In this document: one piece after another, positions 14,394 to 42,339 of the stretch
Numbering within the stretch: position 1 is the first letter of the stretch
Layout: each line of letters opens with the position of its first letter
Source of the DNA: Candidatus Brocadiia bacterium
Lineage (GTDB): Bacteria; Planctomycetota; Brocadiia; SM23-32
DNA: 64,000 nucleotides
Direction of reading: 5' to 3'
NCBI GenBank assembly: GCA_046538485.1
Contig: JBKHIT010000002.1
Location: 64,001-128,000 of the forward strand
Program-made: the position numbers and the translations under genes
Notes under the pieces: generated by a model
Told to the model about the DNA's origin: nothing
Database searches by the model: none
The model's input: the letters and a program-made list of their open reading frames with translations, nothing else

Positions 14394-15413
14394 ATGATGG
14401 GTGACGAAGCGGATGTGCAATTGGTTGAAAAGGCCCATGCGGCCCGCGACAAAATCCTTGGCGAAGTACAAAAAGTCATTATAGGGCAGGAACGACTGAT
14501 AGAGGAGGTTCTGATCTCTCTATTTGCCGGTGGGCATGTACTTATGGTGGGTGTGCCGGGATTGGCAAAAACGCTCCTGGTTCGGACGCTGGCGAAAACT
14601 CTTTCTGTCGAGTTCAAGCGTATCCAGTTTACTCCGGATATGATGCCTTCAGATATTACCGGCACTGAAGTTCTCGAGGAAGATCATGCGACAGGGGGAA
14701 AGCAATTTGTTTTCGTCCAGGGGCCGGTTTTTACAAATCTCCTGCTGGCTGATGAGATAAACCGCACCCCACCGAAAACGCAGGCGGCTCTTCTGGAAGC
14801 TATGCAGGAGAAGGATGTTACGGTTGGCAAGCAGACGTATGGTCTGGATGAACCTTTCATGGTAATGGCCACGCAGAATCCAATTGAGCAAGAAGGCACA
14901 TACCCGCTTCCAGAAGCACAGCTTGATCGGTTTATGTTCATGGTTATGGTCGATTATCCGGCGCAGGACGAGTTGAAAGAAATCATCCGCGAGACGACAG
15001 TTGGTCACCTGCCCGAACCGGATTCGGTTCTGACTGGTGAAGATGTCGCAAAATTGCGAGAGACAGTATGGACGATTCCGATCAGCGACCATGTGCTTGA
15101 TTATATTGTCCGAATCGTTCAGGCCACTCACCCGGATGAGGAGAACGCTGCGGAGATGGTGAAGAAGTATCTTTCGTGGGGAGCCGGGCCCCGCGCGGGC
15201 CAGTACCTCAGTTTGGGAGCTAAATCGCGTGCGCTGCTTCGCGGGAACCTCCAGGCGACCGCGGAAGATGTCCGCGCGGTTATTCACCCCGTCATGCGGC
15301 ATAGAATGGTCACGAATTACACCGCTCTTGCCGATGGGGTGGATACGGATGATGTGATCGATGATTTGCTGAAAGTTGTGCCGGAAGCGCCCAAGGAGAA
15401 AGTTGGCGCCTGA
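14394..15413 (+). CDS. moxR: MoxR-family AAA+ ATPase (MoxR proper)
   Basis: Walker A GVPGLAKT, RIQFTPDMMPSDITG, Walker B LLLADEINRTPPKTQAALLEAMQE and ATQNPIEQEGTYPLPEAQLDRF. Confidence 0.96.
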   Translation: MMGDEADVQLVEKAHAARDKILGEVQKVIIGQERLIEEVLISLFAGGHVLMVGVPGLAKTLLVRTLAKTLSVEFKRIQFTPDMMPSDITGTEVLEEDHATGGKQFVFVQGPVFTNLLLADEINRTPPKTQAALLEAMQEKDVTVGKQTYGLDEPFMVMATQNPIEQEGTYPLPEAQLDRFMFMVMVDYPAQDELKEIIRETTVGHLPEPDSVLTGEDVAKLRETVWTIPISDHVLDYIVRIVQATHPDEENAAEMVKKYLSWGAGPRAGQYLSLGAKSRALLRGNLQATAEDVRAVIHPVMRHRMVTNYTALADGVDTDDVIDDLLKVVPEAPKEKVGA

Positions 15414-15464
15414 CGGTTCTTTCACGGGGTTCCTCCTTTTCATTGGTTCTGAGCTGAAAGAAAT

Positions 15465-16367
15465 ATGCCCACCAGTCAATTTCTTGATCCAGAGGTCTTG
15501 CGCTCACTCGCCAATATCGAATTGAGAGCGCGAGTGCTCGTGGAGGGAATGTACGCATCCCGTCATAGAAGCCCGTATTACGGTTACAGCCAGGAATTTG
15601 TCGATCACCGGGAATACGCCCCGGGCGACGAACCGAAGATGATCGATTGGAAGATGGTAGCGCGGACTGAAAAATATTTCGTCAAACGGTTCGAGATGGA
15701 ATCAAATATGAACGTCGTGGCGCTGCTGGATGTCAGCGGTTCGATGGGATATGAATCCAGTAACGAAGCGCGTCTGAGCAAACTGGAATACGGTTCTTTC
15801 CTGGCAGCTTCCCTTGCTTTTTTGGTCAATAAACAACAGGACTCTCCCGGGTTGGTAACGTTTGACGAAAACATCCGTGATCTTGTCCCCCCAAAACAGG
15901 GGGATCGCAATCTTCATACTATTCTTTCGAAATTGCAGGATACCGAACCGGGTGGGAGAACGGATGTGGGCGATGTGCTCAAAGCGATAAGTCAGCGGCT
16001 AAAAAATAACGGGATAGTTCTAATTATCAGCGACTGTTACGGGGACCCAGAAAATGTAGCGGAAGGCGTTCGGCATCTGTTGGTGCGCGGTCAGGATGTC
16101 ATCATATTCCACCTGATGGATCATGATGAGGTGACGTTCCCGTTCAAGTCTCTGACAAGTTTTCGAGATATGGAGACGGGGCAGGAAGTTATGAGCGACC
16201 CTCTCCGCCAGAAACAGCGGTATCTGAACAAATTCGAGGCTTTTCGGGAAGCGTTGCGCTCCAGCATCACTTCTGCTGGTGCCGACTATCGTTTCGTCGA
16301 TACGGTTGATCCGCTGGAAACAGTATTGCGGGATTATCTCCTTTATCGTGAGCAGACCATGAGATGA
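15465..16367 (+). CDS. DUF58 domain-containing VWA-type protein
   Basis: HRSPYYGYSQEFVDHREYAPGDE, IDWKMVAR, VKRFEME, MIDAS DVSGSM and IISD. Directly downstream of moxR. Confidence 0.93.
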   Translation: MPTSQFLDPEVLRSLANIELRARVLVEGMYASRHRSPYYGYSQEFVDHREYAPGDEPKMIDWKMVARTEKYFVKRFEMESNMNVVALLDVSGSMGYESSNEARLSKLEYGSFLAASLAFLVNKQQDSPGLVTFDENIRDLVPPKQGDRNLHTILSKLQDTEPGGRTDVGDVLKAISQRLKNNGIVLIISDCYGDPENVAEGVRHLLVRGQDVIIFHLMDHDEVTFPFKSLTSFRDMETGQEVMSDPLRQKQRYLNKFEAFREALRSSITSAGADYRFVDTVDPLETVLRDYLLYREQTMR

Positions 16368-16445
16368 AAAGGATTGTTCTAAAGAGCTTTTCTAGTTTAT
16401 TTCGTATCGTCAGAGACGGGAACGAAATGGTTTGATGGAGGCGCG

Positions 16446-19007
16446 ATGAGTTTTCTTTATCCACTTATGCTGGCCGGAATCGCTGGGATTGCGGTGCCGG
16501 TGATCCTGCATCTCATAGCGCGGCACCGATTTCCTGTCCAGGATTTTCCGTCCATCCGCCTGCTTCAGGCTGAAAAACGTGCGAACGTTTTTGCGTTTAA
16601 GCTGGTTGATAAAGCTCAGCTGTTGCTCAGGGCGCTTTTGCTTCTCCTGCTGGCCCTTGCGATGGCTCGGCCATTTTTGAATACGGCGAAAGACGAACCA
16701 CCTCCGTTCAACCGCGTTGTCGTGCTCGATTGCTCTTCCAGTATGAAGATGACTGCAGAAAATGCGAGTGGGGGAGCAGCGCGACCGGCAAGCCTGATGG
16801 AAGTGGCAAAGAACAGGGGGACGGAATTGCTAAGCGAAGTCGAAGAGCCTGGCCATTCGGCCTGCGTTCTGGCCGGCCGTGTGCTGGAGCAGGATGGAAA
16901 TACAAGAAGCAAGGTGGGCTCACTGTTACCGGGACATGCCGAATCTGTGCCGATCGTGCAAATGGCGGAGGCAATTGATGGCGAAGGTGAAGGACTCGTG
17001 TCGGCTTTAGGGAGAGCATGCGGATTGCTCCAGGGGCGGCACGAAATACGATCGCAAATTGTGGTTCTATCCGATATGCGTCGTTCGGCTTTTGCCGCTC
17101 GTAATCAAGCCAATATTGAGAAAATAAGACGGGTCGAAAAAGAACTGGGCGATCGGCTGGATGTTGTTTTCGTTGATGTCCGCGCGGAACCACAGTCGAA
17201 TTTCGGACTCCTGGATGGTTACGTCCGGGGCGGAGCGGGCCAGGTGGGCGAAGATGCCCATATCGTTGCGCGAATTGAACATTTCACTGATCGTATAGAA
17301 GAGCCTGAAGAAAGGGGAGATTCTAATGCTGAGAGCAAGAAACCGGGTTCAGGGAAGACGATACACGCTCGGCTGCGAATCGGACAGCAGAAAGAACCGT
17401 TTGTCCGCGAAATAGCTCTCCAACCGGGATCACAGGCCGTTGTAGATATGACGACACGGGTAAACAAAGCGGTCGAAACCTTCGCTCAGGTCTATCTGCA
17501 GGACCCCGACGGAGTTGCAAGCCCCGACGCTATGTCGGAAGACGACCGGTTTGCTGTTCCCCTGGAGGTTGCGGATGTGCTGCGGGTGTTAATTATCGAT
17601 GGAACGGCTGCCGAAAAGGATACCAAAAGCGAAGTAGAAAAAGCAGATGGCGGTGTAATGACTGGTGGGCTTGGAGGGGATATGCACGGTGCCCCGCATT
17701 CTGAAGAAGAGAGCGATGGGGAATCGATCAGTGGAGTGCGAATTTTGCAGTATGTTCTCAACCCCGCTCGCGAACTGGGGCGAAGGGGGGGAACAGGTAT
17801 AAATGCCAGCGTGGTGACGCTGGACGGTTTAGCGAACCAGCCGCTGAGTAAATACCAAATTATTTGTCTTTATGATGTCAGTAGTCTTTCGGCACAGGCC
17901 TTATCGGACTTGGAGACATTTACAAAACAGGGTGGGGCGTTGCTTCTGATCGTAGCGGAAAATTGCAACCCGATGAAGTTTAATCGGACTTTGGCGTCGG
18001 CGGGGGCCGCTAATGCTGAAGCCGATGGGCGAGGGATGATTGCGCCGGCTCGGGTTGGGAACGAGAGAACTCTTAAATCTCCCGTAGGTGTTGCGCTAGG
18101 TTCGGAAAGTATGACCGAGCTCCATCCCGTGTTGGCGCCATTCCGGGATCAACGTCGGGGCGATCTTTCTGTGGTGAGATTTTCGAAGTTGCGGAAGTTG
18201 CGTGGGCTTGCGCGCGGCGCGGAAGTGATTGTTCAAAGCGAACCGCTGGGAGAAGGAAAACGGGGCATTCCATTAGTCGTGGAGCGAGACATCGGTGACG
18301 GCCGGGTGGTACTGCTGACATTCGGTTTCGAACTCGACCGCGGCAACGTTGCGCGGACGCGTGTTTTCCCCGTCCTTATGTGGCGGATTGTGGATTATCT
18401 CACAAAAAACCTCGAGCGGAAACCGCCTGATATTCTCACCGCTATGAGGCCTGCTGTACTGGATGTTTCCGAGCCGCGGTTTGCGTTCGTTGATGAAGTG
18501 GAGCTGGTCCCAGTTAAAGTTGCCAGAGAAAAATCGGCGGAAAAGAACGGCGAAAATGGGGATGTGAATCTGTCCGTGCAAAAAGAACGCGAAACGTCTT
18601 TAGCTGAACCGCTGATCTTGCCGATTGCGGAGGATCGGACGGTGTTAGTGCCGGCTATCCCGACGGGTTTGTATCGATTACAAAAAGTCCGAACGAACGG
18701 CGGAACTTCGATGTTCAGCGCCCGTTCTCGTTACGTCACCGTCAATCCCGACCCCGCTGAGAGCGATCTGGATCTGGTTTCCGGAGAAGATCTTAACGAG
18801 ATCGCGGGGGAAAGTTGGTCCCGCCTGCAGGTAGGTGAAACACTGAGTTTTGCTCCGGAAGGATGGGAAGCCTGGAAATGGCTGGTGCTGGCGCTGGTGG
18901 TTCTTTATGCTGGCGAAGGATTTGTCGGGTGGTGGCTGAGTGCCCGAAGAGAAAAAGAACGAGCCGATGAATTACCGTCTTTTAACGGAGAAGGAACGGA
19001 AGCATGA
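16446..19007 (+). CDS. BatA N-terminal double-TM domain + VWA + GATase-like membrane protein
   Basis: MSFLYPLMLAG..PVILHL..FPSIRLL..LLLRALLLLLLALAMARP (BatA), DCSSSM, VLSD, VNPDPAESDL and a C-terminal TM helix. Confidence 0.88.
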   Translation: MSFLYPLMLAGIAGIAVPVILHLIARHRFPVQDFPSIRLLQAEKRANVFAFKLVDKAQLLLRALLLLLLALAMARPFLNTAKDEPPPFNRVVVLDCSSSMKMTAENASGGAARPASLMEVAKNRGTELLSEVEEPGHSACVLAGRVLEQDGNTRSKVGSLLPGHAESVPIVQMAEAIDGEGEGLVSALGRACGLLQGRHEIRSQIVVLSDMRRSAFAARNQANIEKIRRVEKELGDRLDVVFVDVRAEPQSNFGLLDGYVRGGAGQVGEDAHIVARIEHFTDRIEEPEERGDSNAESKKPGSGKTIHARLRIGQQKEPFVREIALQPGSQAVVDMTTRVNKAVETFAQVYLQDPDGVASPDAMSEDDRFAVPLEVADVLRVLIIDGTAAEKDTKSEVEKADGGVMTGGLGGDMHGAPHSEEESDGESISGVRILQYVLNPARELGRRGGTGINASVVTLDGLANQPLSKYQIICLYDVSSLSAQALSDLETFTKQGGALLLIVAENCNPMKFNRTLASAGAANAEADGRGMIAPARVGNERTLKSPVGVALGSESMTELHPVLAPFRDQRRGDLSVVRFSKLRKLRGLARGAEVIVQSEPLGEGKRGIPLVVERDIGDGRVVLLTFGFELDRGNVARTRVFPVLMWRIVDYLTKNLERKPPDILTAMRPAVLDVSEPRFAFVDEVELVPVKVAREKSAEKNGENGDVNLSVQKERETSLAEPLILPIAEDRTVLVPAIPTGLYRLQKVRTNGGTSMFSARSRYVTVNPDPAESDLDLVSGEDLNEIAGESWSRLQVGETLSFAPEGWEAWKWLVLALVVLYAGEGFVGWWLSARREKERADELPSFNGEGTEA

Positions 19008-21271
19008 ACGTTATCTACTGGCTACTGGGACTTCGCGATCCCGGCTCAGTTTTAAAGATAACTGAATGGGCCTGGTATGCGGCCAGTTCGCCCGCTCTCT
19101 TGCTTCTTGTTGTAATAACCATTGTGGCACTGGCCGTTGCCGCCCTTAATTTGCTGCCCCAAAATGTCATGCCGTGGACTACCCGTTTCTCATTAACGTT
19201 AATGCGTATCGCGGGATTTGCGCTACTTGTGCTGATGCTGGCGCAGGTTGAACTCGGACTCACCGTTCACCGTGAAGCGCGCCCCCGGGTGGCAATGTTG
19301 ACAGATATTTCGGGGAGTATGTCGATTAAGGATGGAGGCGGCGAAGAATCGCGTCTGTGGGCGGCCAATGCTTTCGCAAATGAAAAGGTCTCCAGGCTTG
19401 CCGAACAAGCGGATGTTGCCCGTTACTCTTTCAACTGGCAGGTAACTTCAGACGAAGAAAACCAGGGGGAGGGTAATGGCACAACACACCTTATCGAGGC
19501 CATCGAAGAAGTGGCGAGGCGGGAGAAAAGCGTCGATGCGCTCATTTTGCTGACCGACGGACACGATACGGTGGGAAATACTGGCCGACGTCTGTCGCGT
19601 CTCCTGGCGGCCCGCGGGCTTCCCGTCTATCCGGTAATTTTCGGGAAATCGGAAAAACCTCGGATTGCGCGCGTGAGAGTGACGGAGGGCGCGAATTATG
19701 TGAGGCTGGGCGACGAAACCCGTTTGGCTGCGAGGGTCACCTCGGAAGGTGTTCGTGGGCAGACGGTGGCCGTGCACCTGTTCGAGGAGGGCAAAGAAAA
19801 ACCAGTAGCCAGCCGCGAGAACGTGCGAATTGGAAAGGGACCCGTTGAGGTCAATTTTGTTGTCCAGCCAACTGAACCGGGTCCACGAACGTATCGCATC
19901 GTTTTGAAGGGCGTCCGCGAATCGGTGAGTGAACGGACGCTTGTCGCAACACATCGCTTGAACGTGATCGACAAAAAGATCCGTGTGCTGTATGTCGACA
20001 TCCCACGGGATGAACGCAAAATTTTGGGACACTGGCTCACTCTTGATCCCGTAGTTGATTTTGCTGCGCTGACATTGATGCCGAAAGGGGGATGGTATGG
20101 GCAGGGAGCCCTTCAACACGAAGACGTGGGAGCCGGACTTCCGAACAAAGAAGCGGATTTGTATAAATACGATGTGATCCTTTTCGGCGATATCCCGCGC
20201 AGTTATTTTCGGCATGGGGGCGACGTAGCGGAGACCAAAATGCGCCGTCTGGTGGAATTTGTGAGCCGCCGGGGAGGTGGCATTGTGACTCTTGGCGGGC
20301 GCGATGTATACGCGGCTGGCGGTTACGAGGATTCTCCGCTTGCGCGTATTTTGCCATTCCGCATTGAACCCACCAAAGAGCCCCAGATCAAAGGCGAATT
20401 TTCGGCACAACCCACAGCGATCGGTTTCAGCCACCCAATAATGCAACTTGAATGGCATCCCCGAGAAAACCGGGATGTTTGGTACGGTCTGGCCCGGCTG
20501 AACGGCTGTAATCGGGTCGGGGAGTTGAAACCAAGTGCCACTTTGCTTGCAGAACGAAAACTAGAGAATGAGACATTTCCGGTCATTGCCATTCACAATG
20601 TGGGGAAGGGGAAAGTTCTTGGAATGACCTGCGATACGACCTGGAGGTGGGAGATGATGCGCCCCCCCGACAGCGAAGATTATTTTCGAAAGTTCTGGGG
20701 TAACGTGGTCCGATATCTCGCCCCCGATCCTCGCCTTTCACCTCACCGACCACAGATAATGCGATACCAATCGCGGGCAGCGGTGGGAGAACGAGTTACC
20801 CTTGCAACGCGCCTTGTCAATGATGTTTATGAGCCGGTGCGCAACGCGGATCTGCTTGTGAAAGTGCGCCACCCATCGGGAAGCTTAACAAAGATATATC
20901 CGCGGGATGGGCGGGATAGCCCGGGACTCTACGAATATGAAATTGATGTCGATGAACCCGGCATCTGGACGGTGGAAACTGTTTACAATGACGCAACGAC
21001 AACCGAGAAAATCAGGGCCGGGGAGAGTACGGAAGAGATGGAGGACCCGACAGCGAAACCAGACGCCATGAATCAGTTTGCCCGCACTACCGGGGGAAAA
21101 GCGTTTACTCCACAGGAAAGTGAGGATTTGCTGAATGCCCTGGATCTTGAGAGGCGAGAGTACGTTCAGCGACCTGTTGTTGCGGTCTGGAACCTCCCCA
21201 TTGTGCTGCTGGCACTTCTGGGATTAGTGTGTATGGATTGTTTCATCCGGAAGCGACGGGGGATGGTGTAA
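19004..21271 (+). CDS. Membrane protein with VWA, Ig-like and glutamine-amidotransferase-like (DUF1355-type) domains
   Basis: Two N-terminal TMs, DISGSM, LLTDG, YDVILFGD, GGGIVTLGG, DTTWRW and a C-terminal TM ending RKRRGMV. ATGA overlap with the previous gene. Confidence 0.85.
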   Translation: MNVIYWLLGLRDPGSVLKITEWAWYAASSPALLLLVVITIVALAVAALNLLPQNVMPWTTRFSLTLMRIAGFALLVLMLAQVELGLTVHREARPRVAMLTDISGSMSIKDGGGEESRLWAANAFANEKVSRLAEQADVARYSFNWQVTSDEENQGEGNGTTHLIEAIEEVARREKSVDALILLTDGHDTVGNTGRRLSRLLAARGLPVYPVIFGKSEKPRIARVRVTEGANYVRLGDETRLAARVTSEGVRGQTVAVHLFEEGKEKPVASRENVRIGKGPVEVNFVVQPTEPGPRTYRIVLKGVRESVSERTLVATHRLNVIDKKIRVLYVDIPRDERKILGHWLTLDPVVDFAALTLMPKGGWYGQGALQHEDVGAGLPNKEADLYKYDVILFGDIPRSYFRHGGDVAETKMRRLVEFVSRRGGGIVTLGGRDVYAAGGYEDSPLARILPFRIEPTKEPQIKGEFSAQPTAIGFSHPIMQLEWHPRENRDVWYGLARLNGCNRVGELKPSATLLAERKLENETFPVIAIHNVGKGKVLGMTCDTTWRWEMMRPPDSEDYFRKFWGNVVRYLAPDPRLSPHRPQIMRYQSRAAVGERVTLATRLVNDVYEPVRNADLLVKVRHPSGSLTKIYPRDGRDSPGLYEYEIDVDEPGIWTVETVYNDATTTEKIRAGESTEEMEDPTAKPDAMNQFARTTGGKAFTPQESEDLLNALDLERREYVQRPVVAVWNLPIVLLALLGLVCMDCFIRKRRGMV

Positions 21272-23113
21272 ATGGCCAAACGATCAGGACAGCAGGGAAC
21301 GAAAGAAACGCGGGAATCCCTGCGTTCCCTGATGGATGGGCTCCGGGGTTTCGGCCGGTTCCGCAAAAAATGGCGCATTTTGGAAGGCCTCGGACGGGCC
21401 CTGGTTGTGGGGCCTGCGCTCCTTTTCTTGTGGTTTATCGTCGATTGCATCTTTAGGCTGCCTGCGTGGCCTCTCTTCCTCCTATTTGTTCTGGTATGTC
21501 TTGGCTGGTTGCTCGGTATTATCCGGTGGTTTGTGTGGCCGCTTTTTGGCAAGATCGACCCGGAACGGGAAGCGTTACAGGTAGAAAAACTGCATGGCAA
21601 TATGGACAACCGTCTCATCGGCGCTCTCCAGCTTGGCGAAGAAGTCCAGGAGAGTGAACGAACCGGGCACCGGTTAGGCTATTCCAAAGGGCTTGCGCGG
21701 GCTTTTGTGCGTCGGATATCTCGAATGTGGCCAAAACTCGAAGCACGACAGTTCGTCGACCTGAGATCTGCCAAACGATGGTTCGGAGCGATATGGCTTG
21801 TTGTGCTGATCGCCGGAGGCTGTTTTTTCCTCGGGCGCGATGCCGTGACGAATCGAGTCAACAGGCTCCGACTGGCTTATGCGACGGTCCTCGACACGAT
21901 TTTCCCTGTCAAACTCGTAGCACATCCGGGCAACATAAAGCTCGTTACAGGGGAATCGGTCGATTTGTCCGTCGAAGCTAAAGGTGCGCGACGGCCTGAA
22001 ATCGAGTTGATCATGACTGATCAAAACGGGAAAAATCCCCGAAGCGAGATGCTCGAACTCAAGGAGCATAAAGCCCGGTTTAAAATCGAAAAGGCGGCGG
22101 AGTCTTTCAGATATACATTCCGCTACGGACGACAGGAAACCGAACAGTATACGGCACTCGTGGCGGATCTGCCCCGGCTGGAAGCTATTAATTACGAATT
22201 GATGTATCCCGCTTATACCGGCCAGCCGCCTCGAACACTTGTGGGACGCGTGCCCCGATTGCGAGCCCTGGAGGGCACGCGTGTACTGGTAAGTTTCGCA
22301 ACGACATCTCCGCTGAATCGCGATCTTTCGCACGTGGAATGGCAAACGGGCGTTCGACAACCCATATCCATCCGGGGCCGGTTTGGCCATTTCTCATTTG
22401 TTCTAGAGCAGCCCGACCGTGCTAAGATCTATCTTTTCGGGATGCACGGGAAGAAATTCCGAATGGAAAAGACGCCGAGTTTTGAAATTGCGGTTCGACC
22501 TGATGAAAGCCCATCGGTCAGAGCCCTGCTGCGGAAGAAGAAACAGACGATGCTTGCTGAGCAGGCGACGGCTTTCGCGCTCGGTTATGCAGCAGAAGAT
22601 GATTTTGGCGTCTCGGAAATAGTGTTGAGATATAAGATCGAGGGTATTGATGAGTTTTTGAATCGGCCGACGCGGGAAAATGAGGTTACGCGGAAAATCG
22701 ATCCGCCCCGCGACAAGATCAGAGGAAGGTTTGCAAAAGTATTCGAAGCCGTGGAACCACCTCTTGCGCCCGGAGATCGCATTCGAATGACGATTCTGGC
22801 GCGGGATAACAATACGGAAACAGGACCGGGGCTCGGTAAAAGTCAGCCCATTGAAATTGTTGTGGTTCGACCGGATCTGGCGAAGTTTACCGAAAAGGAA
22901 TTCGCTTTTGGCGGACGAAGTTTGCTCGGCGAATTGCACAAAGTAAAACGCAGCACAAATTTGCTTGTCCAACCTGAACGGAGTGTGCGAAAAGAAAAGC
23001 AACACGAAGTTGAACCAAGGGAACTGGAAGCCAGACTGAATCCAGAATCGTGGCCCAGCGGGGCTGAAGATTCCGTAGGCGATTATTTCCGGCTTCTGTC
23101 GGAGGAGGAATAA
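21272..23113 (+). CDS. DUF4175-like membrane protein with Ig-like domains
   Basis: Three N-terminal TMs, DNRLIGALQL, YPAYTG, AEDDFGVSEI, ARDNN and C-terminal DYFRLL. Start abuts the previous stop (TAAATG). Confidence 0.75.
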   Translation: MAKRSGQQGTKETRESLRSLMDGLRGFGRFRKKWRILEGLGRALVVGPALLFLWFIVDCIFRLPAWPLFLLFVLVCLGWLLGIIRWFVWPLFGKIDPEREALQVEKLHGNMDNRLIGALQLGEEVQESERTGHRLGYSKGLARAFVRRISRMWPKLEARQFVDLRSAKRWFGAIWLVVLIAGGCFFLGRDAVTNRVNRLRLAYATVLDTIFPVKLVAHPGNIKLVTGESVDLSVEAKGARRPEIELIMTDQNGKNPRSEMLELKEHKARFKIEKAAESFRYTFRYGRQETEQYTALVADLPRLEAINYELMYPAYTGQPPRTLVGRVPRLRALEGTRVLVSFATTSPLNRDLSHVEWQTGVRQPISIRGRFGHFSFVLEQPDRAKIYLFGMHGKKFRMEKTPSFEIAVRPDESPSVRALLRKKKQTMLAEQATAFALGYAAEDDFGVSEIVLRYKIEGIDEFLNRPTRENEVTRKIDPPRDKIRGRFAKVFEAVEPPLAPGDRIRMTILARDNNTETGPGLGKSQPIEIVVVRPDLAKFTEKEFAFGGRSLLGELHKVKRSTNLLVQPERSVRKEKQHEVEPRELEARLNPESWPSGAEDSVGDYFRLLSEEE

Positions 23114-35000: not shown

Positions 35001-36884
35001 GAGCAAATGATGAGGGGAGCTTTTCAACGAAGAAAAAGGGATGCCGGGCACGCCGTGGATGTCTTCCTGGTTCCTGAACGAATGGATGATTGGGATCATT
35101 ACACCTGCGAGGTCATGCGTGGGGTTGGCCAGGGCCTGGCCGGCTGGATCTTGTGGAACAATCCGGATGGGTCGGGCCCCCTGGCGGTGGAACCCAAAAA
35201 GTTTGCCTCCATGGCGAAAATAGCCGACCAATGGCGCCGACGTTACTGTCCGGAGAAACCTCTGTTGATCGGGGGAATGAGCTCCAATACGGCTATCCCA
35301 TATCTGCGGAAGTTAGGCAAACAAAATGCTTTGGAACATGTCAGCGGAGTGAATGTTCGTATGGACGTCGGACGGCTTTCCCCGGAAGACGCTGAGATTG
35401 TCAATTATATTGAGGAGCTTCGCTCAGAAATGCCTCAGGCTGAAGAACATCGTTACGTTCTTGTGACGGATCTCGACTGGGCCGTTGAGAAAGAAGGGAG
35501 CGGGCTCTGCGTGTTTGACCAGGCCGCGTTTTTGACGCGCTCATACATGATGTTAAACCGTTTCGGAATTCGGCCTGTTTTGCAAATTGCGAACGAAGAT
35601 TATGATCGACTCGGGCTGGGTCTGGCGTATCGGGATCGCCTTTATGTACCGCCGATGCGGGCCCGACCGAGTGATTATCATTTTAAACCTTCCTGGTGGG
35701 CGATGGCCCGGGTGCGAGAACTGTTTGGCAATTTCCATTCGACGGGAAGCGTTGAAATCAGCGATATTATTCCCGGGCAAACCCGGTGCTTGCTTTTCGA
35801 AAAAAGCGGAGAGGATGTGACTGTCGTCGTATTATGGCGTTTGTATCGGCCGGGAGAAATCTCTTTTGAAAATACAGGTCTCGAAGTGACTGAATCATGG
35901 GACCTGTTTGGAACTCCCATTAAGCCGACTGAGAAATGGTTCTCCGTGGGGAAAATGCCCACTGCGTTCCGTATCCCCGTGAAACCGACTGTTGCGGAGC
36001 AAGCATTGAGACTTCTGCAGGTGAAAAGTCCAGATGGGCTGAGCTGGCCCCAGACGGTTATATCGGTAATAAAACCGGGAGGAAAAGATTATAAACAGAC
36101 CGGCGGCCAAAAAGCGGTTTTCAAGGGCAAAACGGTGACTGCACGCAGCTGGGAAGGTAATGGTTTGCGGTTCAAAAAAGGTGGTTCGGAGGAATTTTCA
36201 GTGCCAGTGCCGAAAGATTACGGACTGGTTCTCAGGAAACGCTTCCTGCTGGAAGAGATCGGGCAAGACGCGGAGGTGGCGGTCAATGGGAAAAAAGTAG
36301 CGGAGTGGAATCTGCGGCGGCACAAAAAACAGTTGTCCGGTGGCGTGCGAGATAGCTCTTTTTTCATTGGAAGGAAGCATTTAAAAAATTCAGACGAGGC
36401 AAAAATAACGGTCAAATACCCGGACGCAGCCAATACGATCGAGTGGCGGATTTTTGCGTATCGAGAAGGCGCCTTCCCACTCTCAGCTCTCGGCCCTCTG
36501 TATGCGGAACAGAATGTTGGGCACATAAGGTTTGGACGCAACAGTCTCGGGATGCCACTGAAAATTGCTGGCAAATCATTTAAAAACGGACTGGGGACAT
36601 TTGCCCGTAGTCTGGTGGAATATCAAATCAACGGGCAATTTAAGAAGCTGAAGGCAGAAGTCGGTGTGGATGCCGTCACAGAAGGGAAAGGATCCGTTGT
36701 GTTCAAAGTGTTTGGTGACGGGGAAGAACTGTGGTCTTCACCTGTAATGTCGGGGTTGGATGAAGCCCGACCGGTGGAGATAGATGTGAGCAGTGTAGAT
36801 CGGTTGCGTCTGGTGGTTGATAACGCTGGCGATGGCAACCGCTATGATGCTGCAAATTGGGGCAGAGCCCGCCTGCTGCGCTAA
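31998..36884 (+). CDS. Large secreted protein (1628 aa): three CBM-like/Ig-like repeats, GH39/GH5-like barrel, C-terminal NPCBM/NEW2 domain
   Basis: Signal peptide, three W-V-[KH]-G-D-G..D-[FW]-x-[GD]-W modules, WILWNNPDG, FKPSWWA and NPCBM (GRNSLGMPLKIAGKSFKNGLGTFA..VGVD..GSVVFKVFGDG..DGNRYDAANWG). ATGA overlap. Confidence 0.82.
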   Translation: MKRVLGTTITLWIAALVFLSLNCAVAAQPHNIVENFTARLNSSDQIHSSVVTTDPWRGVGHAHLTYKAEGRHRRASLFLPDEKYRVPGPGTVKMWVKGDGSGNNLRICVRHARVQHDRHGRRRLQHHEDIWSRQVKLDFAGWKRLSFDMSEIPDDRSAWWRCLEITVPRGQEAKMSGKLALDEFVQIPKKSRPKGAVAVTLIGPRIRNFSRKIAVSLDVRNFTRKSQEIKARVVATDRNENLVLDRDFTIKAEPFARISADENKTSEHHLELVPDQIARFLPPFKVQCDVGSELTDLSVSRSFKVVMGNSIYLFDDLSDVYGRWFTAGGGDLKSMRHWPKWIMGEQQRYSPFYQTSARLTRVPVEHKPTGKLLAERYLGKYAMKFDYRGNAAVYMTRRRYLPGNAYRMGVWVKGDGNGAELWARFLDYTDNADFWPGGWQRIGRGGRVVCKLDFTDWRYFELELPGGGIGRNTPRGSTDALDFPLELTAFRIEPGKEKSSGSVQIGAIHVHTQQPQRKTLAVQVGYEDAERRWWSEGDAWAAVQNSWPGGGRKVRVTWNLLDRKNEEIASGQKELGLNPVATANVEIPLSKFAAKIEKCLAPFRLQVVATDTEDFSTSTTRELIIAKPDSSALVADFEAERGYLGMLPRGMERKKPAGEFVAWTSAKVSHGGQRSLAINWKKEAGLQLPVSVDPPLPGVPVELSLWVHGDGKGEIMYPLIGDKRGVSHGAHGGQWDLFLPRTSAGKFQNVVKVDWKGWKKLTFNLPVIPPTWQEKLPVLGFEASYPLGVHLMVDGRDASAEMGTIYVDDLRAETHLAPQHRVNMRLRPMGRTNVLRPGEAARVLVTNHGMADESNVEIEGGIYDWRGRKRVEVDEKRALKPMAHVGLECGEKLPVGAYKIALDLKQNAKKLEHLSKDFLVGDLSKYLGSGWEEQIDDSPALKRPLGEDFARIDEDWDWVEHYPGNVQLDTLRYHIGRVREDGAKPWALLGYSAYYAAGVGFEQMMRGAFQRRKRDAGHAVDVFLVPERMDDWDHYTCEVMRGVGQGLAGWILWNNPDGSGPLAVEPKKFASMAKIADQWRRRYCPEKPLLIGGMSSNTAIPYLRKLGKQNALEHVSGVNVRMDVGRLSPEDAEIVNYIEELRSEMPQAEEHRYVLVTDLDWAVEKEGSGLCVFDQAAFLTRSYMMLNRFGIRPVLQIANEDYDRLGLGLAYRDRLYVPPMRARPSDYHFKPSWWAMARVRELFGNFHSTGSVEISDIIPGQTRCLLFEKSGEDVTVVVLWRLYRPGEISFENTGLEVTESWDLFGTPIKPTEKWFSVGKMPTAFRIPVKPTVAEQALRLLQVKSPDGLSWPQTVISVIKPGGKDYKQTGGQKAVFKGKTVTARSWEGNGLRFKKGGSEEFSVPVPKDYGLVLRKRFLLEEIGQDAEVAVNGKKVAEWNLRRHKKQLSGGVRDSSFFIGRKHLKNSDEAKITVKYPDAANTIEWRIFAYREGAFPLSALGPLYAEQNVGHIRFGRNSLGMPLKIAGKSFKNGLGTFARSLVEYQINGQFKKLKAEVGVDAVTEGKGSVVFKVFGDGEELWSSPVMSGLDEARPVEIDVSSVDRLRLVVDNAGDGNRYDAANWGRARLLR

Positions 36885-36915
36885 CCCGCATATGGGTCGG
36901 AGAATTTCAGAGAGG

Positions 36916-36955
36916 TGCAGGTCCGCATCGACGAGGCGGGCCCGCCGGTGGTCGT
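36916..36955 (+). repeat. REP-like dispersed repeat, copy B
   Basis: TGCAGGTCCGCATCGACGAGGCGGGCCCGCCGGTGGTCGT, similar to 5013-5052. Confidence 0.65.
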
Positions 36956-37448: not shown

Positions 37449-38471
37449 CTATTTTTCCTTTTTGATTTGCTGGATGATTTGTTTGATGTATTTGCCTTCA
37501 CGTGAATCGGGATTGAAGGAGATGGCTTTTTGAAGCGTTTTCAGGGCTTTTTCCCTTTTGCCTTGCTGGGCATACAGGATGCCGAGGAAGTAGTGATCTT
37601 TCTGAGGTTCTTTGAGTTTAACACCGGCTTCCGTAAGCTTCTCCATTTTATCAGTAGCTTCCACTACCTGTTTTTTCAATTGCGCCGGGGGAGTACTCCG
37701 GGCATTTTGCAACAGGCTCATCACGTAGGATGTTACGGCTTTTTCCCAGAAACCGTCTTTGTTTTTGGGGTCAAATGTCCGGACCTGATTGAGAGCCTCA
37801 CTCAGCTCGTCCTTTTTCCCTGATTTTTGCAGAGTTTGGAAACGGATCATCGCTGCTTTTGCCCCATTTCCCCGTTTGTTATCGGGATCAAGCTCGAGAA
37901 CTTTTTCGGCTGCATGAAGTGCCTTTTTGTGTTGCTGGACGCCCATGTAGATATTCATCGCCTGAACATTAAATTCGTAACTGTCTGTATCGGCTGTTTT
38001 GGTTTTTTTCTGGAATGTCTTGAAACTCTGCAATTTTTTCTGTCCGGTTTCCAGCTTTTTGACAAAAGGATCTACGGGAAGATACCCGGCCCAGGAATTG
38101 AAGACTATCCCATCGGCAGTAACCTGCACCAGGAAAGGGTACCCTCCACCTCCCCATTTTTTCATTAATTTACGGTATTTCTTAGCGTTTTCGAGTTCTT
38201 TTCCCTTTCGGTTTCGCACCGTACAGTCGAGGCTTACAGGAACGAATGCTTTGAGCGCCTGTTTGCCTTTTTTGTTGTTGTAAACATCTTTTTCGATTCT
38301 CCGGCACCAACCGCACGACTCGGTCGTGAAGTGCACATAAAGCGGTTTGCTTTCTTTGCGGGCCAGTTTCTTGGCTTTCTCCCAATCACTGAGAAAATAG
38401 TCAACGCCTGCAGCAGCATGAAGAAGCGGAGAGGCGAGGATTAAAAGACAGACGGCAAATAACTTTTTCAT
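37449..38471 (-). CDS. Exported thioredoxin-fold (CGWC) protein with TPR repeats
   Basis: Signal peptide MKKLFAVCLLILASPLLHA, KPLYVHFTTESCGWCRRIE, cis-Pro GYPF and TPR segments (AEKVLELDPDN, LGILYAQQGKREKALKTLQKAISFNP). Confidence 0.88.
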   Translation of the reverse strand: MKKLFAVCLLILASPLLHAAAGVDYFLSDWEKAKKLARKESKPLYVHFTTESCGWCRRIEKDVYNNKKGKQALKAFVPVSLDCTVRNRKGKELENAKKYRKLMKKWGGGGYPFLVQVTADGIVFNSWAGYLPVDPFVKKLETGQKKLQSFKTFQKKTKTADTDSYEFNVQAMNIYMGVQQHKKALHAAEKVLELDPDNKRGNGAKAAMIRFQTLQKSGKKDELSEALNQVRTFDPKNKDGFWEKAVTSYVMSLLQNARSTPPAQLKKQVVEATDKMEKLTEAGVKLKEPQKDHYFLGILYAQQGKREKALKTLQKAISFNPDSREGKYIKQIIQQIKKEK

Positions 38472-38528
38472 ATTTTTCCCTTTTGAGAAACGAGTGGATA
38501 GCCGAAATCATAAAAACCCATTATATTG

Positions 38529-38558
38529 AGCATAGGTCATTTTGAGGTTTTATGTCAA
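38529..38558 (-). promoter_or_regulatory. Putative sigma70 promoter for the thioredoxin-TPR gene
   Basis: Minus strand TTGACA-N18-TATGCT. Confidence 0.4.
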
Positions 38559-38835: not shown

Positions 38836-41800
38836 ATGTATGTGAGGGTGCAAAACATTCTTCTGTGGGTTTTGCAGATACTTCTCTCTGCAACGTTGCT
38901 GCCCGCGGTTGGCTTTGCGGCGGAGGCGGAGGTCTTACAGGCGAAGGAGATAGAATCAGAACTCGGGCGCGTAACCGACCTCCGAGTGGTTCACCGCGGT
39001 GCTATTGAGCACCTTCAGGATGCCCGTACGCTGACGGTTTATCTTGCTGGCTGGGGAGGGCCTGACCGGGACCCCGAGGTCGAAGACCTGATGGTCGAGG
39101 CGGAAGGACTCTATGGCCTGATTCGGGGAGTCGATTACGGAGCGAGCGGTTTGCAGGCTCAATTTAATGTTGCCACCAGCAACAAGAAAGAGACGGTCAA
39201 GAGACCTGCGGTTGAATCTCTTGCGCTTCTCCAACGTGCGCGTCGTTCAGTGGCCGAGCAGGTAAATGATTTCTACCGACGATGCGTGGCGTTGAAAAAA
39301 GATCTTCGCAAGCGGGTACGAGAAACTGCGCGCCAGAAAATCCAATGGGAGATAACCGAAAAGGCGGCCGCCTGGGGGAGTCCTGTGCTTGAAAGAGGAC
39401 GCCGTTCGGGTCTTCGCTTTGGGTGGAGGTTGCGTGAAAGGGACCGCAGAACGGATTTTTTTGATTACAGCGACGAGCGCAAGAACCACGTTCTCGCCAC
39501 GGGCGCCCGGATGGGTATTTCATTCGTAAACGTCTATTACAACAAGGTTTGTAACTGGTCAGTTATCGAAAAAGAGAAGGGGGAGTATGATTTTGCCCCC
39601 CTTGATAATATCGTCAAACGCGCCCACAAATACGGCATTCGTGTGACCCCAATGCTGGCCTGTTTGAACGGATCACCACCAGAATGGCATCTTGAGAAAG
39701 AGGGCAAGGACAGCCAGTTCACTGTCTTAAGACGAAGACGCCGCCGCGAACCAAAAAAGGAAGTTCAGACAGGAATCAATTTGTTCCATGAACCAACGCG
39801 CAAAGCCTTCACGCGTTTTTTGACGGCCTATGCGCGTCATATCCGGCAAAAATGGGCAGAACAAATTCCGGCCGTCTATGCACCGGGGACCCAGCGCGAA
39901 CTCAGCGCACCCGCAGATCGGTCGGAGATTATGGATCAGTTCTGGCGACGCTGGGACCGAGCGCACGGGGGCGATGGGAAGAGCGAATGGGTGATACCGG
40001 AAGAAATTGACCGTGAGAGAAAAGGCGGTGAACGCGCGTATGTCCGGGCCGAAATGTGCCGGGAGGACTGGCTTATTCAGTACGTGCGAACGGTTCATAA
40101 GGCGTTGAAACAAGGCCACGACGAGTTAATTGTTCAGATGCCGACCACAAGCGATGATTTCCACAGACTTTTCGCGGCTCGAACGGGTAATTCGCGCGAT
40201 CTGAGCCGACTCTGTGAGTTGACGGATAACCCCGGGACTTCCACGGACAGCCCGGCTGGATTCGGAGTGCTGCGCAGCTTGGCGGACGGGGCGTGGCGAT
40301 GGTCGCAGGACGTCCATTCAGGTTGCGGAATCATTGCTGCTGCGGCCACATCAAATGCGACGTTGCACGGTTGTGTGCGGATTGCTATCGGGGAACCTGC
40401 AAACAGTTTGCGGGCCTATTTCCCACGAAGCTGGTTCCGCTATTGTGACTGGCAGATCGGCGGGTTCGGTATTGGATCTTACTACCTTGCGCCGATGCGC
40501 TGTCAGGAACTTTCTGCGCTGATTCTCAACACCCGTCGGGCAGACGCGCCGATTGCTGTACTGTGGAGCCAGAGCAGTCTACGGCGCGACAAGAACAGTC
40601 GTTGGTTCAAAAGCGCGATGGCATGGGGCCATCTTCTCGCCAGGTCCTATTTTCAGTTCGATTATATTGCTGAGAACGGCCTCGCGGAAAATCTTAAAAA
40701 TTACAGAATTTTGATTCTACCGTCGACCCATACGTTGCCAGATGGGGTTAGCAAAACGATCCGGCAGTGGGTTCGAGGGGGCGGTATTCTTCTGGGATTT
40801 GGGGCGCCCGGTCTTTACGATGAATTTGGGGTTCGACGCAAAGGACTGCCTCTGGCGGACGTTTTTGGGGCGGAATTCGCCGGGTTCCGGGTTCCAGCGC
40901 CCATCCGACCCGACAGACTGGTGACGACACACCCGGAAGGTTCGTATGTTTCGATCCCCCCGCACGATTACAAGTTCGAGGCGAGCACTTACGCGGTGCT
41001 TGAGCCAACGGATGGCAAGGCCCGGGCATTTTATGCTTCGCGTCACGAGCAGGTAGCCATTGTGGAGCACAAGTTTGGTGAAGGTGAGGCTATGCTCAGT
41101 GGATACCCCGTGGGGTTTGAGTACTGGCAGGCTGCACCTTACGAAATGGGGCTCGGATTGACCCATCATCGCCAGCTCGATTACAATCCTGAAATTAAAC
41201 GATACGAACATTGGCTGGCAAAAGAACTCGAAAAACGGGGCGTAAAGCGAGAACTGGTGCCGGCATACGGTCGCATGCTGCGTTCCCAGCGCGGGGATGA
41301 TCCCGACTGGTTCCACATCTTCCGCAACAATCCCGAATATCGGGAGTACATGTTCGAAACTGATCGACCGGTCCGGGCGGTCTACGCCATCCCTCGTAAG
41401 AGAGAGGGGATTGACAACTTTTACGTGACTTTTACCAATACTCAGGCTAACTATTTATGGGAACGCGGATATTTCGTCAGCACACTGGCCGGGGGACGTG
41501 TCATGATGGCGGTGCTGGCGGAGGATAGATGGGAAGAAACGCCTGTCGTTTTTGACGCGCGCCTCAGAGTTCCTGTTCCGGCCGAAATTAAGAAGGGTAG
41601 GATCAAGATGCAGCTTGTTGATAGAGGATATACAGCTCGGGAGGCTAAGCCGGCTCATATGGACGGGCGGTACCTTCGTTTTGAAACCTGGCTGCCGGTT
41701 TCTCGCGCGGCAGGATATGCCATCGCGCCGCAGGGAAAAGTCCGTTTGTTTGGACAGACCGAACCTGACGGCGAGACTCCGGATGCGGTCTTTGAAAAAA

Positions 41801-42339
41801 CTCAAGCCTGCGAAAAAGGTGAGAAACTTCGTGCGACTGAGATTCTTGCGCCGGCTGAAATCGGCGAGTTTTTGGAGAAACGGCGGGGCAAGGAACTTCT
41901 CATCGGGTGCGGGGATCGGCGTTACCGGCCGGTCGGCGAGGAATTGGCCACGTGGTTGAGGGAAAAATACAATATTGAGGCCAAAACGACGACAGCAGGT
42001 CCTCGCGCGACGACGAATTGCACATATATGTCAGGTTTTGGTTGGACCCGTTACGGTAAAAACCCGGTGGAGGCCGATATACTTGTGGGCAATGATCAGT
42101 CCAACGGTTTAATGTGGAAGTTCGCCGACAGCAAAGACTGGGTGCACTGGTTACCGGTGGAGGTCAATCAAGATTTCCCGGGTCTTGGGCATGCCATTGT
42201 AATGATGTCACTTCCGGTAAGGACCCGCGCGAACGGCCAGCCCGGCGGCAGAGGGGCCCCCAGTCACCTTATCATCGGCGCCAGCAATCCCTCGGATGCG
42301 CTTCGGGCGGTGAAGGAAATGAATGAGAGATTGAAGTAA
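38836..42339 (+). CDS. Secreted GH42 beta-galactosidase-like multidomain protein (about 1167 aa) with atypical catalytic positions
   Basis: Signal peptide ..LLSATLLPAVGFA, NWSVIEKEKGEYDFAPLDNIV..GIRV..SPPEW, and trimerisation domain APIAVLWS..FDYI..YRILILP..WVRGGGILL..YDEFG. Confidence 0.75.
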   Translation: MYVRVQNILLWVLQILLSATLLPAVGFAAEAEVLQAKEIESELGRVTDLRVVHRGAIEHLQDARTLTVYLAGWGGPDRDPEVEDLMVEAEGLYGLIRGVDYGASGLQAQFNVATSNKKETVKRPAVESLALLQRARRSVAEQVNDFYRRCVALKKDLRKRVRETARQKIQWEITEKAAAWGSPVLERGRRSGLRFGWRLRERDRRTDFFDYSDERKNHVLATGARMGISFVNVYYNKVCNWSVIEKEKGEYDFAPLDNIVKRAHKYGIRVTPMLACLNGSPPEWHLEKEGKDSQFTVLRRRRRREPKKEVQTGINLFHEPTRKAFTRFLTAYARHIRQKWAEQIPAVYAPGTQRELSAPADRSEIMDQFWRRWDRAHGGDGKSEWVIPEEIDRERKGGERAYVRAEMCREDWLIQYVRTVHKALKQGHDELIVQMPTTSDDFHRLFAARTGNSRDLSRLCELTDNPGTSTDSPAGFGVLRSLADGAWRWSQDVHSGCGIIAAAATSNATLHGCVRIAIGEPANSLRAYFPRSWFRYCDWQIGGFGIGSYYLAPMRCQELSALILNTRRADAPIAVLWSQSSLRRDKNSRWFKSAMAWGHLLARSYFQFDYIAENGLAENLKNYRILILPSTHTLPDGVSKTIRQWVRGGGILLGFGAPGLYDEFGVRRKGLPLADVFGAEFAGFRVPAPIRPDRLVTTHPEGSYVSIPPHDYKFEASTYAVLEPTDGKARAFYASRHEQVAIVEHKFGEGEAMLSGYPVGFEYWQAAPYEMGLGLTHHRQLDYNPEIKRYEHWLAKELEKRGVKRELVPAYGRMLRSQRGDDPDWFHIFRNNPEYREYMFETDRPVRAVYAIPRKREGIDNFYVTFTNTQANYLWERGYFVSTLAGGRVMMAVLAEDRWEETPVVFDARLRVPVPAEIKKGRIKMQLVDRGYTAREAKPAHMDGRYLRFETWLPVSRAAGYAIAPQGKVRLFGQTEPDGETPDAVFEKTQACEKGEKLRATEILAPAEIGEFLEKRRGKELLIGCGDRRYRPVGEELATWLREKYNIEAKTTTAGPRATTNCTYMSGFGWTRYGKNPVEADILVGNDQSNGLMWKFADSKDWVHWLPVEVNQDFPGLGHAIVMMSLPVRTRANGQPGGRGAPSHLIIGASNPSDALRAVKEMNERLK

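Follow-up and report, generated by a model that had tools for sequence, protein, structure and literature searches.

Operons that encode a MoxR-proper ATPase together with DUF58, BatA and DUF4159 proteins are found widely, and except in the Mxa case we know of no named client for any of them. What such a module acts on is the question raised by the locus described here, in which six cassette genes are followed on the same strand by genes for two very large proteins, Giant 1 (G1) and Giant 2 (G2). Within the window, the whole 64,000-nucleotide stretch that was analyzed, these features are located as follows:

14394..15413, plus strand: MoxR-proper AAA+ ATPase, 339 aa (Pfam AAA_3, E 1e-64)
15465..16367, plus strand: DUF58 VWA protein, 300 aa (Pfam DUF58, E 1e-44; VWA_2)
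16446..19007, plus strand: BatA-N double-anchor VWA membrane protein, 853 aa (Pfam BatA, E 1.5e-12; TIGR02226)
19004..21271, plus strand: VWA and GATase1-like membrane protein, 755 aa (Pfam GATase1_like, E 1.4e-6)
21272..23113, plus strand: short DUF4175-like membrane protein, 613 aa (Pfam DUF4175, E 4e-8)
23114..23947, plus strand: exported DUF4159 protein, 277 aa (Pfam DUF4159, E 1.4e-30)
23974..32001, plus strand: G1, 2675 aa (81 homologues at 34-55% identity; Pfam, model and fold search)
25615..27513, plus strand: GH42-like module of G1 (fold search, hhalign and column counts)
31998..36884, plus strand: G2, 1628 aa (89 homologues at 39-52% identity; conservation and model)
34770..35987, plus strand: GH39-like domain of G2 (fold search and residue alignment to 5jvk)

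The eight open reading frames from moxR to G2 occupy positions 14394-36884 of the plus strand, as seen from ORF calls and Pfam matches. The original prediction had described eight tightly coupled genes on one strand, and all eight ORFs and all four junctions were verified: stop and start codons overlap as ATGA at 19004 and 31998 and abut as TAA-ATG at 21272 and 23114, and the remaining intergenic gaps are 51, 78, and 26 nt. Promoter and terminator scans gave counts that were ~2 sd or less from those of shuffled sequence, and no Rfam family was found within 13000-44000. By hydropathy, the three membrane proteins each show three TM-like stretches, and DUF4159, G1, and G2 show a hydrophobic stretch at the N terminus.

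Walker and MIDAS motifs are conserved across the cassette proteins. The MoxR protein, whose orthologs are 68-78% identical, scores 217 bits against Pfam AAA_3 and 51 against bpMoxR, and an alignment of 19 sequences shows conservation of its Walker A (GVPGLAKT), Walker B (LLADE), and LDRF motifs. The DUF58 protein retains the MIDAS motif DxSxS and shows no hydrophobic segment by hydropathy; it is likely a cytoplasmic adaptor of MoxR. By hydropathy and conservation, the BatA-type VWA protein has two N-terminal hydrophobic segments, one C-terminal segment, and a DxSxS motif, while the VWA/GATase1-like protein contains both DxSxS and TDG. The DUF4175-like protein is ~600-660 aa long in most giant-linked copies, and four other paralogues of the source genome measure 720-1615 aa. 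In a 39-sequence alignment, the DUF4159 clade has a mean column identity of 74%, two invariant cysteines, and a conserved C-terminal loop.

Structure models and fold searches back the GH-A-type barrels that had been proposed for the giants, and Pfam supports their propeller, MG2, and NPCBM domains. In G2, three similar CBM-like sandwiches alternate with Ig-like domains, a repeat identified by eye, and are followed by a GH39-like barrel and a C-terminal NPCBM/CBM51 domain. Residues 625-1628 were modelled with a pLDDT of 88.9. The C-terminal domain matches CBM51 (Z 25.1); the (beta/alpha)8 barrel with its beta-sandwich matches 5jvk (Z 20.6, rmsd 5.9, 425 aligned residues) and PslG 5bx9 (Z 19.3). 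At the acid/base site after strand 4, where the WNEP of 5jvk aligns to W-N-N-P, G2 proteins carry S, N, G, or T, with Glu in 0 of 87 sequences. The nucleophile site after strand 7, where VTEIGW aligns to VTDLDW, is occupied by Asp in 79, Asn in 6, Glu in 1, and Ala in 1 of the 87. Judged by its sequence, G2 is thus a GH39-fold protein that lacks both catalytic glutamates, and the term pseudo-glycosidase, which the original prediction applied to both giants, suits it well. For G1 the term is only half right, as the acid/base Glu is kept within an Asp-Glu pair. A paralogous relationship between the two barrels was rejected (hhalign probability 0.4%).

G1 consists of an N-terminal part, a beta-sandwich, a GH42-like three-domain module, an MG2-like Ig domain, an alpha/beta domain, and a C-terminal PQQ_2/BamB-type propeller. 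Atlas scores for its N-terminal 309 aa are at most 0.86, indicating low recognition, and residues 439-1450 were modelled with a pLDDT of 91.7. The module has the GH42 domain set of barrel, GATase-like trimerisation domain, and C-terminal beta domain; its fold matches 5xb7 (Z 21.1, rmsd 3.2, 496 aligned residues) and the GH164 structure 6t5o (Z 20.7), and comparison with 23 GH42 sequences gave hhalign probabilities of 97.9-99.2%. The barrel was placed only by folding and by this GH42 profile comparison, with its sequence profile finding no match in the PDB up to E 10. The propeller, at approximately residues 2383-2610, resembles BamB (E ~1e-26) and designed propellers far more than quinoprotein dehydrogenases (E 1e-11 or weaker), which rules out G1 as a PQQ dehydrogenase.

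In the GH42-like module of G1, the acid/base residue E695 and the preceding D694 are each found in 80 of 82 sequences, Y820-K821-D822 is invariant (82/82), and E650 and D657 occur in 79 and 81 of the 82, respectively. The strand-7 nucleophile site is Q850/L851, with the GH42 Glu aligning to L851, and neither Glu nor Asp is among the five commonest residues at any of columns 847-852. Although the nucleophile is lost, G1 keeps the Asp-Glu pair and so may not be catalytically dead. We consider it possible, if somewhat doubtful, that G1 is a non-canonical glycosidase that is either substrate-assisted, acting on N-acetylhexosamines through D694-E695, or metal-dependent like GH106; the complex would then be a degradative or envelope-remodelling enzyme, an activity compatible with either a maturation or a machine architecture. 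Beyond the conserved residues, this possibility draws on the consecutive Asp-Glu pair being the catalytic motif of substrate-assisted GH123-type enzymes (as described in part of PMC11087588), on the metal dependence of GH106 enzymes, one group of which has Asp-Glu at a comparable site (from passages of PMC6828813), and on the GH106 structures 6q2f (Z 17.3) and 5mwk (Z 15.6) in the fold list, which contains no GH123 row. It is weakened by the best folds being classical GH42 and GH164, by the D694-E695 pair being conserved in subtype A only to vary at the Asp in distant full-length relatives (N, Q, H, or E), and by the distant relative P0169, which also lacks the equivalent of the E695 Glu.

Do the giants belong with the cassette? 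Homologues of the giants might have occurred mostly without MoxR/VWA neighbors, and the opposite was found: of the 38 genome loci that extend 1.2 kb or more upstream of G1, 35 have a DUF4159 orthologue there, as do 54 of 55 informative metagenome loci, and G2 lies downstream of G1 in 36 of the 39 genome loci that extend 1.5 kb or more downstream. In the home phylum, 13 of the 401 genomes carry the DUF4159 clade at E<=1e-30, and it is these 13 that have large G2 matches (12) or G1 matches (12). In a second phylum, clade and giants share the same 5 of 301 genomes. The co-occurrence persists where the genes are scattered, and in the five genomes in which the VWA gene does not adjoin G1 an orthologue (50-57%) is encoded elsewhere (5/5). 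Gene order is shuffled while the set is kept together: moxR is first in nine loci and last in nine, and in loci L096 and L100 a G2-HEAT-HESP block is inserted inside the cassette. The subtypes number at least four, and in each the cassette goes with giants of its own; genomes G104, G188, G270, and G407 carry paralogous subtypes, each with its own cassette and giants.

Trees of three cassette proteins and of both barrels separate the same subtypes, with the VWA tree being a quick tree with long branches. Mantel values for the trees were computed without host-phylogeny control, and the all-subtype G2 correlations were set aside because the G2 row of C_L058 is a neighboring A-type gene. Congruence inside subtype A can be plain shared descent, and the 13 system genomes fall in five families, so that they are not independent. 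There are also exceptions: certain subtype-B giants lie dispersed and lack a cassette within the fetched flanks (G407:C129, G261:C36); locus L193 has G1-G2 with no DUF4159 in 8.5 kb upstream; and in G261, which has A-type giants, the best DUF4159 is only 40% identical. Three further frequent members, a CBM9-like protein, a HEAT protein, and the 'HESP' protein, had not been recognized in the earlier reading of the locus; all three are absent from the source copy, with no remnant in 36885-37448.

With 10 MoxR paralogues and 184 ORFs of at least 1000 aa in the source genome, an ordinary Bat/cmd envelope operon could lie passively beside two of many large CAZyme-like genes. Two genes that flank the system are such bystanders:

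37449..38471, minus strand: exported CGWC thioredoxin-TPR (ORF call and Pfam)
38836..42339, plus strand: exported GH42-derived protein G3, 1167 aa (Pfam and locus comparison)

The thioredoxin gene is real, as had been noted, but it lies convergent with G2 on the opposite strand, and therefore cannot share its transcript. The proposal that it encodes a maturation factor is not supported, in view of its strand and its absence from related loci: tblastn gave 0 matches in the fetched loci L001-L260 outside the source genome, and the five system genomes (5/5) contain only weak generic matches (E 8e-9 or weaker, 25-33%). G3, proposed as a third giant, has no detectable similarity to the G1 and G2 profiles (hhalign probability 0.1%) and does not travel with the system, being absent at E<=1e-10 from 5 of 5 system genomes and found downstream of G1 in 0 of the 31 loci, among 52 genome loci, with at least 8 kb of downstream sequence. 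For G1 and G2 themselves, passive linkage is very improbable and already largely refuted by the co-occurrence data, given that presence and absence match in two phyla, that the genes are retained even when dispersed, that their order is reshuffled, and that paralogous sets are cognate. Linkage, co-occurrence, and cognate sets instead mark G1 and G2 as dedicated partners of the MoxR/DUF58/BatA/VWA/DUF4175/DUF4159 cassette, and because they are inherited together with it, the giants are probably what this ATP-driven module builds or drives.

Our preferred reading, held tentatively and at a little under an even chance, is that the six cassette genes and two giants form one inherited functional unit in which a MoxR/DUF58/VWA machine assembles or metal-loads an exported glycan-binding complex. 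We infer the topology, physical contacts, client role, metal loading, and glycan binding along the following lines. The cytoplasmic MoxR ATPase would act via the DUF58 VWA adaptor on the two inner-membrane VWA proteins and the short DUF4175 protein. Metal-binding MIDAS sites in the periplasm could then grip the exported partners G1, G2, and DUF4159, joined in many genomes by the CBM9-like, HEAT, and EF-hand-like proteins. The gripped partners would be remodelled into a large heteromeric glycan-binding complex, probably loaded with a divalent metal, in which G2 may serve as a non-catalytic multi-lectin and G1 as a lectin or non-canonical glycosidase. The three membrane proteins could anchor it as a glycan-capture scaffold, as the original prediction envisaged. 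Precedents include the VWA domain of the Bat-type protein BB0173, which faces the periplasm (according to part of PMC5700661), the gripping of an acidic patch on the target by a MIDAS (from passages of PMC9976466), and the deletion of mxaR, S, A, C, K, or L, which yields an inactive enzyme devoid of Ca that added Ca rescues in vitro (as given in part of PMC12276312).

Genomic data alone do not separate a client from a permanent subunit. The giants could be permanent subunits of an ATP-powered trans-envelope machine: DUF58 and the membrane VWA/DUF4175 proteins would transmit the energy of MoxR to a lectin complex, in the periplasm or at the surface, which captures large glycans and draws them in, independently of SusCD/TonB, or which holds the envelope. 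This possibility, which we regard as somewhat doubtful, agrees with conservation of both giants over their whole length, non-catalytic domains included, with the same parts list being split differently in subtypes C and D, and with the loss of catalysis, which suits a structural or binding role. In the portions of the literature consulted, the players in planctomycete macromolecule uptake are described as unknown (PMC12673574), Verrucomicrobiota MAGs lack SusCD (PMC8857213), and cmdA-D mutants have envelope defects (cited in PMC5700661). However, no outer-membrane channel was recognized among the linked genes, and the MoxR/VWA pairs characterized in the relevant parts of PMC9976466 and PMC12276312 are remodellers rather than motors. 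Moreover, a system present in only 13/401 and 5/301 genomes cannot be a general uptake route.

No description of this gene set was found in the literature searched, which covered few subscription papers, and the main text of a Kiritimatiellia synteny preprint contains none of six terms looked for. The locus could represent a family of ATP-powered trans-envelope glycan machines that has gone undescribed, comprises at least four subtypes, and extends over Planctomycetota, Verrucomicrobiota, and relatives. Such a machine would combine a cytoplasmic MoxR motor, membrane VWA proteins, and a ~half-megadalton complex of rewired GH42/GH39 proteins for glycan capture, processing, or import without SusCD, with G1 performing nucleophile-free metal- or substrate-assisted chemistry switched on by the cassette. 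This full picture is speculative and, taken whole, unlikely. For MoxR-proper/DUF58/BatA/DUF4159 operons, the system offers clearly delimited candidate clients whose co-inheritance is close to perfect. It adds a pair of conserved GH-A protein families of non-canonical type and, in a minority of lineages, a candidate for the question of large-glycan handling by PVC bacteria. The Mxa system has reportedly been reconstituted heterologously in E. coli, and with defined candidate clients and several cognate pairs within single genomes, specificity and mechanism are directly testable here by the same approach.

Among known systems, the MoxR-vWA beta-propeller ternary conflict systems (PMC7159879, in part) and Esr (10.64898/2026.09.08.750141, in part) likewise place MoxR, VWA, and propeller in one locus. 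The former are defined in that portion of PMC7159879 by a bpMoxR-type ATPase and a propeller fused to the vWA protein, and neither is found here. By analogy, the lectin and propeller giants could sense a glycan threat that MoxR-VWA relays inward. The occurrence of the conflict systems in planctomycetes, the pairing of surface propellers with MoxR/vWA in Esr, and a patchy distribution, with a close DUF4159 orthologue in none of 40 relatives, point in this direction. Such sensing or defense is nonetheless quite improbable, as the MoxR belongs by its bit scores to another subfamily, propeller and VWA are not fused, kinase, FHA, effector, and regulator are all absent from the conserved linked genes, with no variable effectors, and the giants are conserved (~40-55% identity) rather than hypervariable.

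The G2 and G1 modules share fold and domain order with GH39 (5jvk, PslG) and GH42/GH164 enzymes, respectively. Unlike GH39, G2 lacks both catalytic glutamates; G1 has neither the nucleophile nor the cysteine cluster of GH42; and in contrast to both families, the modules here sit inside multidomain chains of 1600-3000 aa. The cassette resembles the Bat operons of Bacteroides, Leptospira, and Borrelia (bb0170-0176) and Rhizobium cmdA-D (RL3499-3502), which encode MoxR, DUF58, and a BatA-anchored VWA protein, are located at the envelope, and have no defined client in the part of PMC5700661 that describes them. It has their AAA_3 MoxR with intact Walker motifs, DUF58, and a VWA protein with a BatA-N/TIGR02226 anchor and MIDAS. 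None of the eight genes has a Pfam or NCBIfam match to BatC (TPR) or BatD/E (SH3); a TPR gene occurs only on the opposite strand. In contrast to these operons, the present system adds the short DUF4175, the clade-specific exported DUF4159, and obligatory giant partners.

The best functional analogue is the Mxa accessory system, MxaR-MxaS-MxaA-MxaC-MxaK-MxaL, in which a large periplasmic partner is encoded alongside a MoxR ATPase and several VWA proteins and depends on them (PMC12276312, in part). The Mxa client is a PQQ/Ca methanol dehydrogenase, which G1 fails to match with its BamB-like propeller. That client is also catalytically active, while standard catalysis is missing from G2 and probably from G1. 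Here giants of GH42 and GH39 fold take the place of the quinoprotein, and DUF4175 and DUF4159 are added to the module.

All eight same-strand genes of the original prediction, with their tight junctions, were recovered by ORF listing and translation between 14394 and 36884 on the plus strand. Genes overlap as ATGA at 19004 and 31998 and abut as TAA-ATG at 21272 and 23114, and the remaining intergenic gaps are 51, 78, and 26 nt.

Features in and around the gene block
7652-11062: exported 1136-aa protein, no Pfam or NCBIfam match; the genome holds three or more paralogues
13493-14137, minus strand: 214-aa ORF, limited to the pair of Ig domains from the C-terminus of a beta-mannosidase; perhaps the remains of a gene
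14394-23947, plus strand: six-gene cassette
23974-32001, plus strand: giant 1 (G1), 2675 aa
31998-36884, plus strand: giant 2 (G2), 1628 aa
36895-37110, 3' of G2: dispersed intergenic REP- or MITE-like repeat (~70 genome-wide blastn matches of 32-109 bp at 69-88% identity, many directly downstream of genes)
37449-38471, minus strand: CGWC thioredoxin-TPR protein
38836-42339: third large protein (G3), 1167 aa, exported and GH42-derived; GH42 catalytic motifs align poorly; one distant paralogue on contig C44

The cassette proteins match the AAA_3 MoxR, DUF58/VWA, BatA/TIGR02226, GATase1-like, DUF4175, and DUF4159 families of Pfam and NCBIfam, and their Walker and MIDAS motifs are kept across orthologue alignments. 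Hydropathy indicates three TM-like stretches apiece in the three middle cassette proteins and a single N-terminal hydrophobic stretch, the basis of predicted export, in each of DUF4159, G1, and G2. Two proposed members fall away: the thioredoxin-TPR protein is encoded on the minus strand, and G3, though of GH42 origin, is not detectably similar to either giant. G3 had no match in five of five system-bearing genomes and was absent from every foreign locus apart from those fetched for G3 itself.

Linkage was assessed around G1 in 52 genome loci and 59 metagenome loci, a sample that includes related and duplicate assemblies. A DUF4159 orthologue lies upstream of G1 in 35/38 genome loci with at least 1.2 kb upstream and in 54/55 metagenome loci (the other four of the 59 had upstream flanks too short to count), counts at odds with giants that occur mostly apart from MoxR/VWA neighbours. 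Of the 29 genome loci whose upstream flank reaches 7 kb or more, 24 have a BatA or VWA-GATase gene; among the five without one, L096 and L100 have G2-HEAT-HESP inserted within the cassette. G2 lies downstream of G1 in 36 of 39 genome loci with at least 1.5 kb downstream. The position of moxR varies (first in nine loci, last in nine). DUF4159 is absent from locus L193, and some subtype-B giants have no cassette within the fetched flanks. In L095 and L099 the DUF4159 gene is tandemly duplicated immediately 5' of G1, with the remaining cassette elsewhere in the genome. At the 31 loci whose downstream flank reaches 8 kb or more, further genes recur for a CBM9_1-like protein (19 loci), a HEAT protein (16), and a ~195-aa HESP protein (16); the window's genome (88% complete) has no clear orthologues of them. 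HESP proteins (L057:7816-8409; L110, L112, L117) are exported, carry AHESPxDHV, ERAAL, and MDxxxxGxI motifs and, by our reading, an EF-hand-like loop, and have no Pfam match; the HESP gene moves together with the HEAT gene.

Co-occurrence extends the association beyond adjacency, in counts that include kin, so that genomes are not independent: the DUF4159 clade (E<=1e-30, our own threshold) occurs in 13/401 genomes in one sample of the home phylum, where large G2 matches and G1 matches, in 12 genomes each, together cover the same 13, and in a second phylum the clade and the G2 barrel occupy an identical 5/301 genomes. In G435, from that phylum, both are present with the genes far apart, and in genomes with unlinked G1 a VWA orthologue is found elsewhere in five of five (50-57% identity). 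An A-type DUF4159 was not found in genome G261. The system is patchy, because no close DUF4159 was found in any of 40 relatives of the window's genome (best E 1e-18). On this genomic evidence, cassette and giants are very probably functionally coupled, and passive linkage is a scarcely credible account of their adjacency.

Among the best ~8000 candidates scored, G2 has at least 89 homologues (39-52% identity) and G1 at least 81 (34-55%), mostly near full length, with source labels of Planctomycetota, Verrucomicrobiota, Kiritimatiellia, and Lentisphaerae. Judged from these labels and from a DUF1559 gene that it carries, the window itself probably belongs to Planctomycetota. Across 1.84 billion representatives, profile searching gave 42 proteins at E<=1e-30, some of them full-length relatives at 25-36% identity. 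Titles of L074, L080, L095, and L110 name Klebsiella, Akkermansia muciniphila, or Rhodospirillaceae; their genes match the PVC system, and these labels are probably unreliable. A subtype-B G1 gene (L126 / L125, G261:C36) has one in-frame TAA inside the match and is a broken gene or assembly error.

Full cassettes with their own giants also occur outside A, the type in the window.

Further subtypes
A2 (L129): complete cassette and own giants
B (L195; L261-L265, a similar divergent set): complete cassette and own giants
C (L058, L138-141, L217-218): G1 split into GH42-like and propeller proteins; HEAT gene
D (L215-216): complete cassette and own giants

Two system types occur in each of G104, G188, and G270, and three operons in G407. 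FastTree trees of VWA, DUF4159, DUF4175, and both barrels resolve the same subtypes. Distances correlate with those of the G1 barrel at 0.92-0.93 across 25-26 operons and, inside A alone, at 0.71-0.80, values that ignore host kinship; all-subtype G2 values were set aside, the G2 row for C_L058 being a neighbouring A-type gene. In a quick tree, giant-linked VWA proteins separate from the window genome's other VWA paralogues (support 92). That genome holds 10 MoxR paralogues and several further cassettes, each followed by different exported genes (an NPCBM protein closes one set), a pattern suggestive of 'cassette plus cargo' as a general design.

Further DUF58/BatA/VWA cassettes in the window's genome
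C67 34062-47437, minus strand
C119 83755-97153
C20 49947-62760
C97 111730-122539

The giants had been described as pseudo-glycosidases, which holds for G2 and in part fails for G1. The model of G2 625-1628 (pLDDT 88.9) has, in fold searches, a GH39-like barrel (5jvk, Z 20.6; PslG, Z 19.3) preceded by a beta-sandwich and an Ig domain and followed by another beta domain and CBM51 (Z 25.1). WNEP and VTEIG of 5jvk fall on WNNP and VTDLD of G2 (overall E 5e-4), and Glu occurs in 0/87 sequences at the first catalytic site and 1/87 at the second; subtype D G2 keeps the acid/base Glu and has lost the nucleophile. The model of G1 439-1450 (pLDDT 91.7) holds an entire GH42/GH164-type module (Z 21.1 and 20.7). 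Aligned as a profile with 23 GH42 proteins (probability 97.9-99.2%), G1 has D694-E695 at the GH42 N-E, Y820 at the strand-6 Tyr, and L851 at the nucleophile position; it lacks the GH42 cysteine cluster. With both catalytic Glu sites lost, G2 is, judged from sequence, a pseudo-enzyme by GH-A rules; with D694-E695 kept but the nucleophile lost, G1 would be a lectin or else an enzyme of different chemistry. Activity of G1, a question apart from architecture, is doubtful, and possible leads come from the available text on substrate-assisted GH123-type enzymes, in which a consecutive D-E pair is catalytic (PMC11087588), and on GH106 enzymes of related fold, which depend on metal (PMC6828813).

We found no description of this gene set in the literature passages searched; supplementary tables may list such loci. 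Our tentative preference is that the cassette would remodel, and would probably load metal into, an exported, putative glycan-binding complex. The main rival, in which the giants would be permanent parts of an energised glycan-capture or envelope machine, is rather unlikely, and a sensing or defence role is improbable. Remodelling and metal loading are favoured because of three likenesses in the accessible parts of earlier accounts: the Mxa precedent, the periplasmic VWA domain of BB0173 (PMC5700661), and target recognition by the MIDAS of NorQD (PMC9976466). The system is real, robustly linked, and a variant of the MoxR-proper/DUF58/VWA kind, to which it gives defined candidate clients. Its closest experimental precedent is Mxa, the accessory genes of methanol dehydrogenase, where MoxR and VWA proteins serve a periplasmic partner: the MoxR-class MxaR and the VWA proteins MxaS, C, and L are required for Ca loading of the periplasmic enzyme, by a mechanism that its authors describe, in the text available, as unresolved (PMC12276312).
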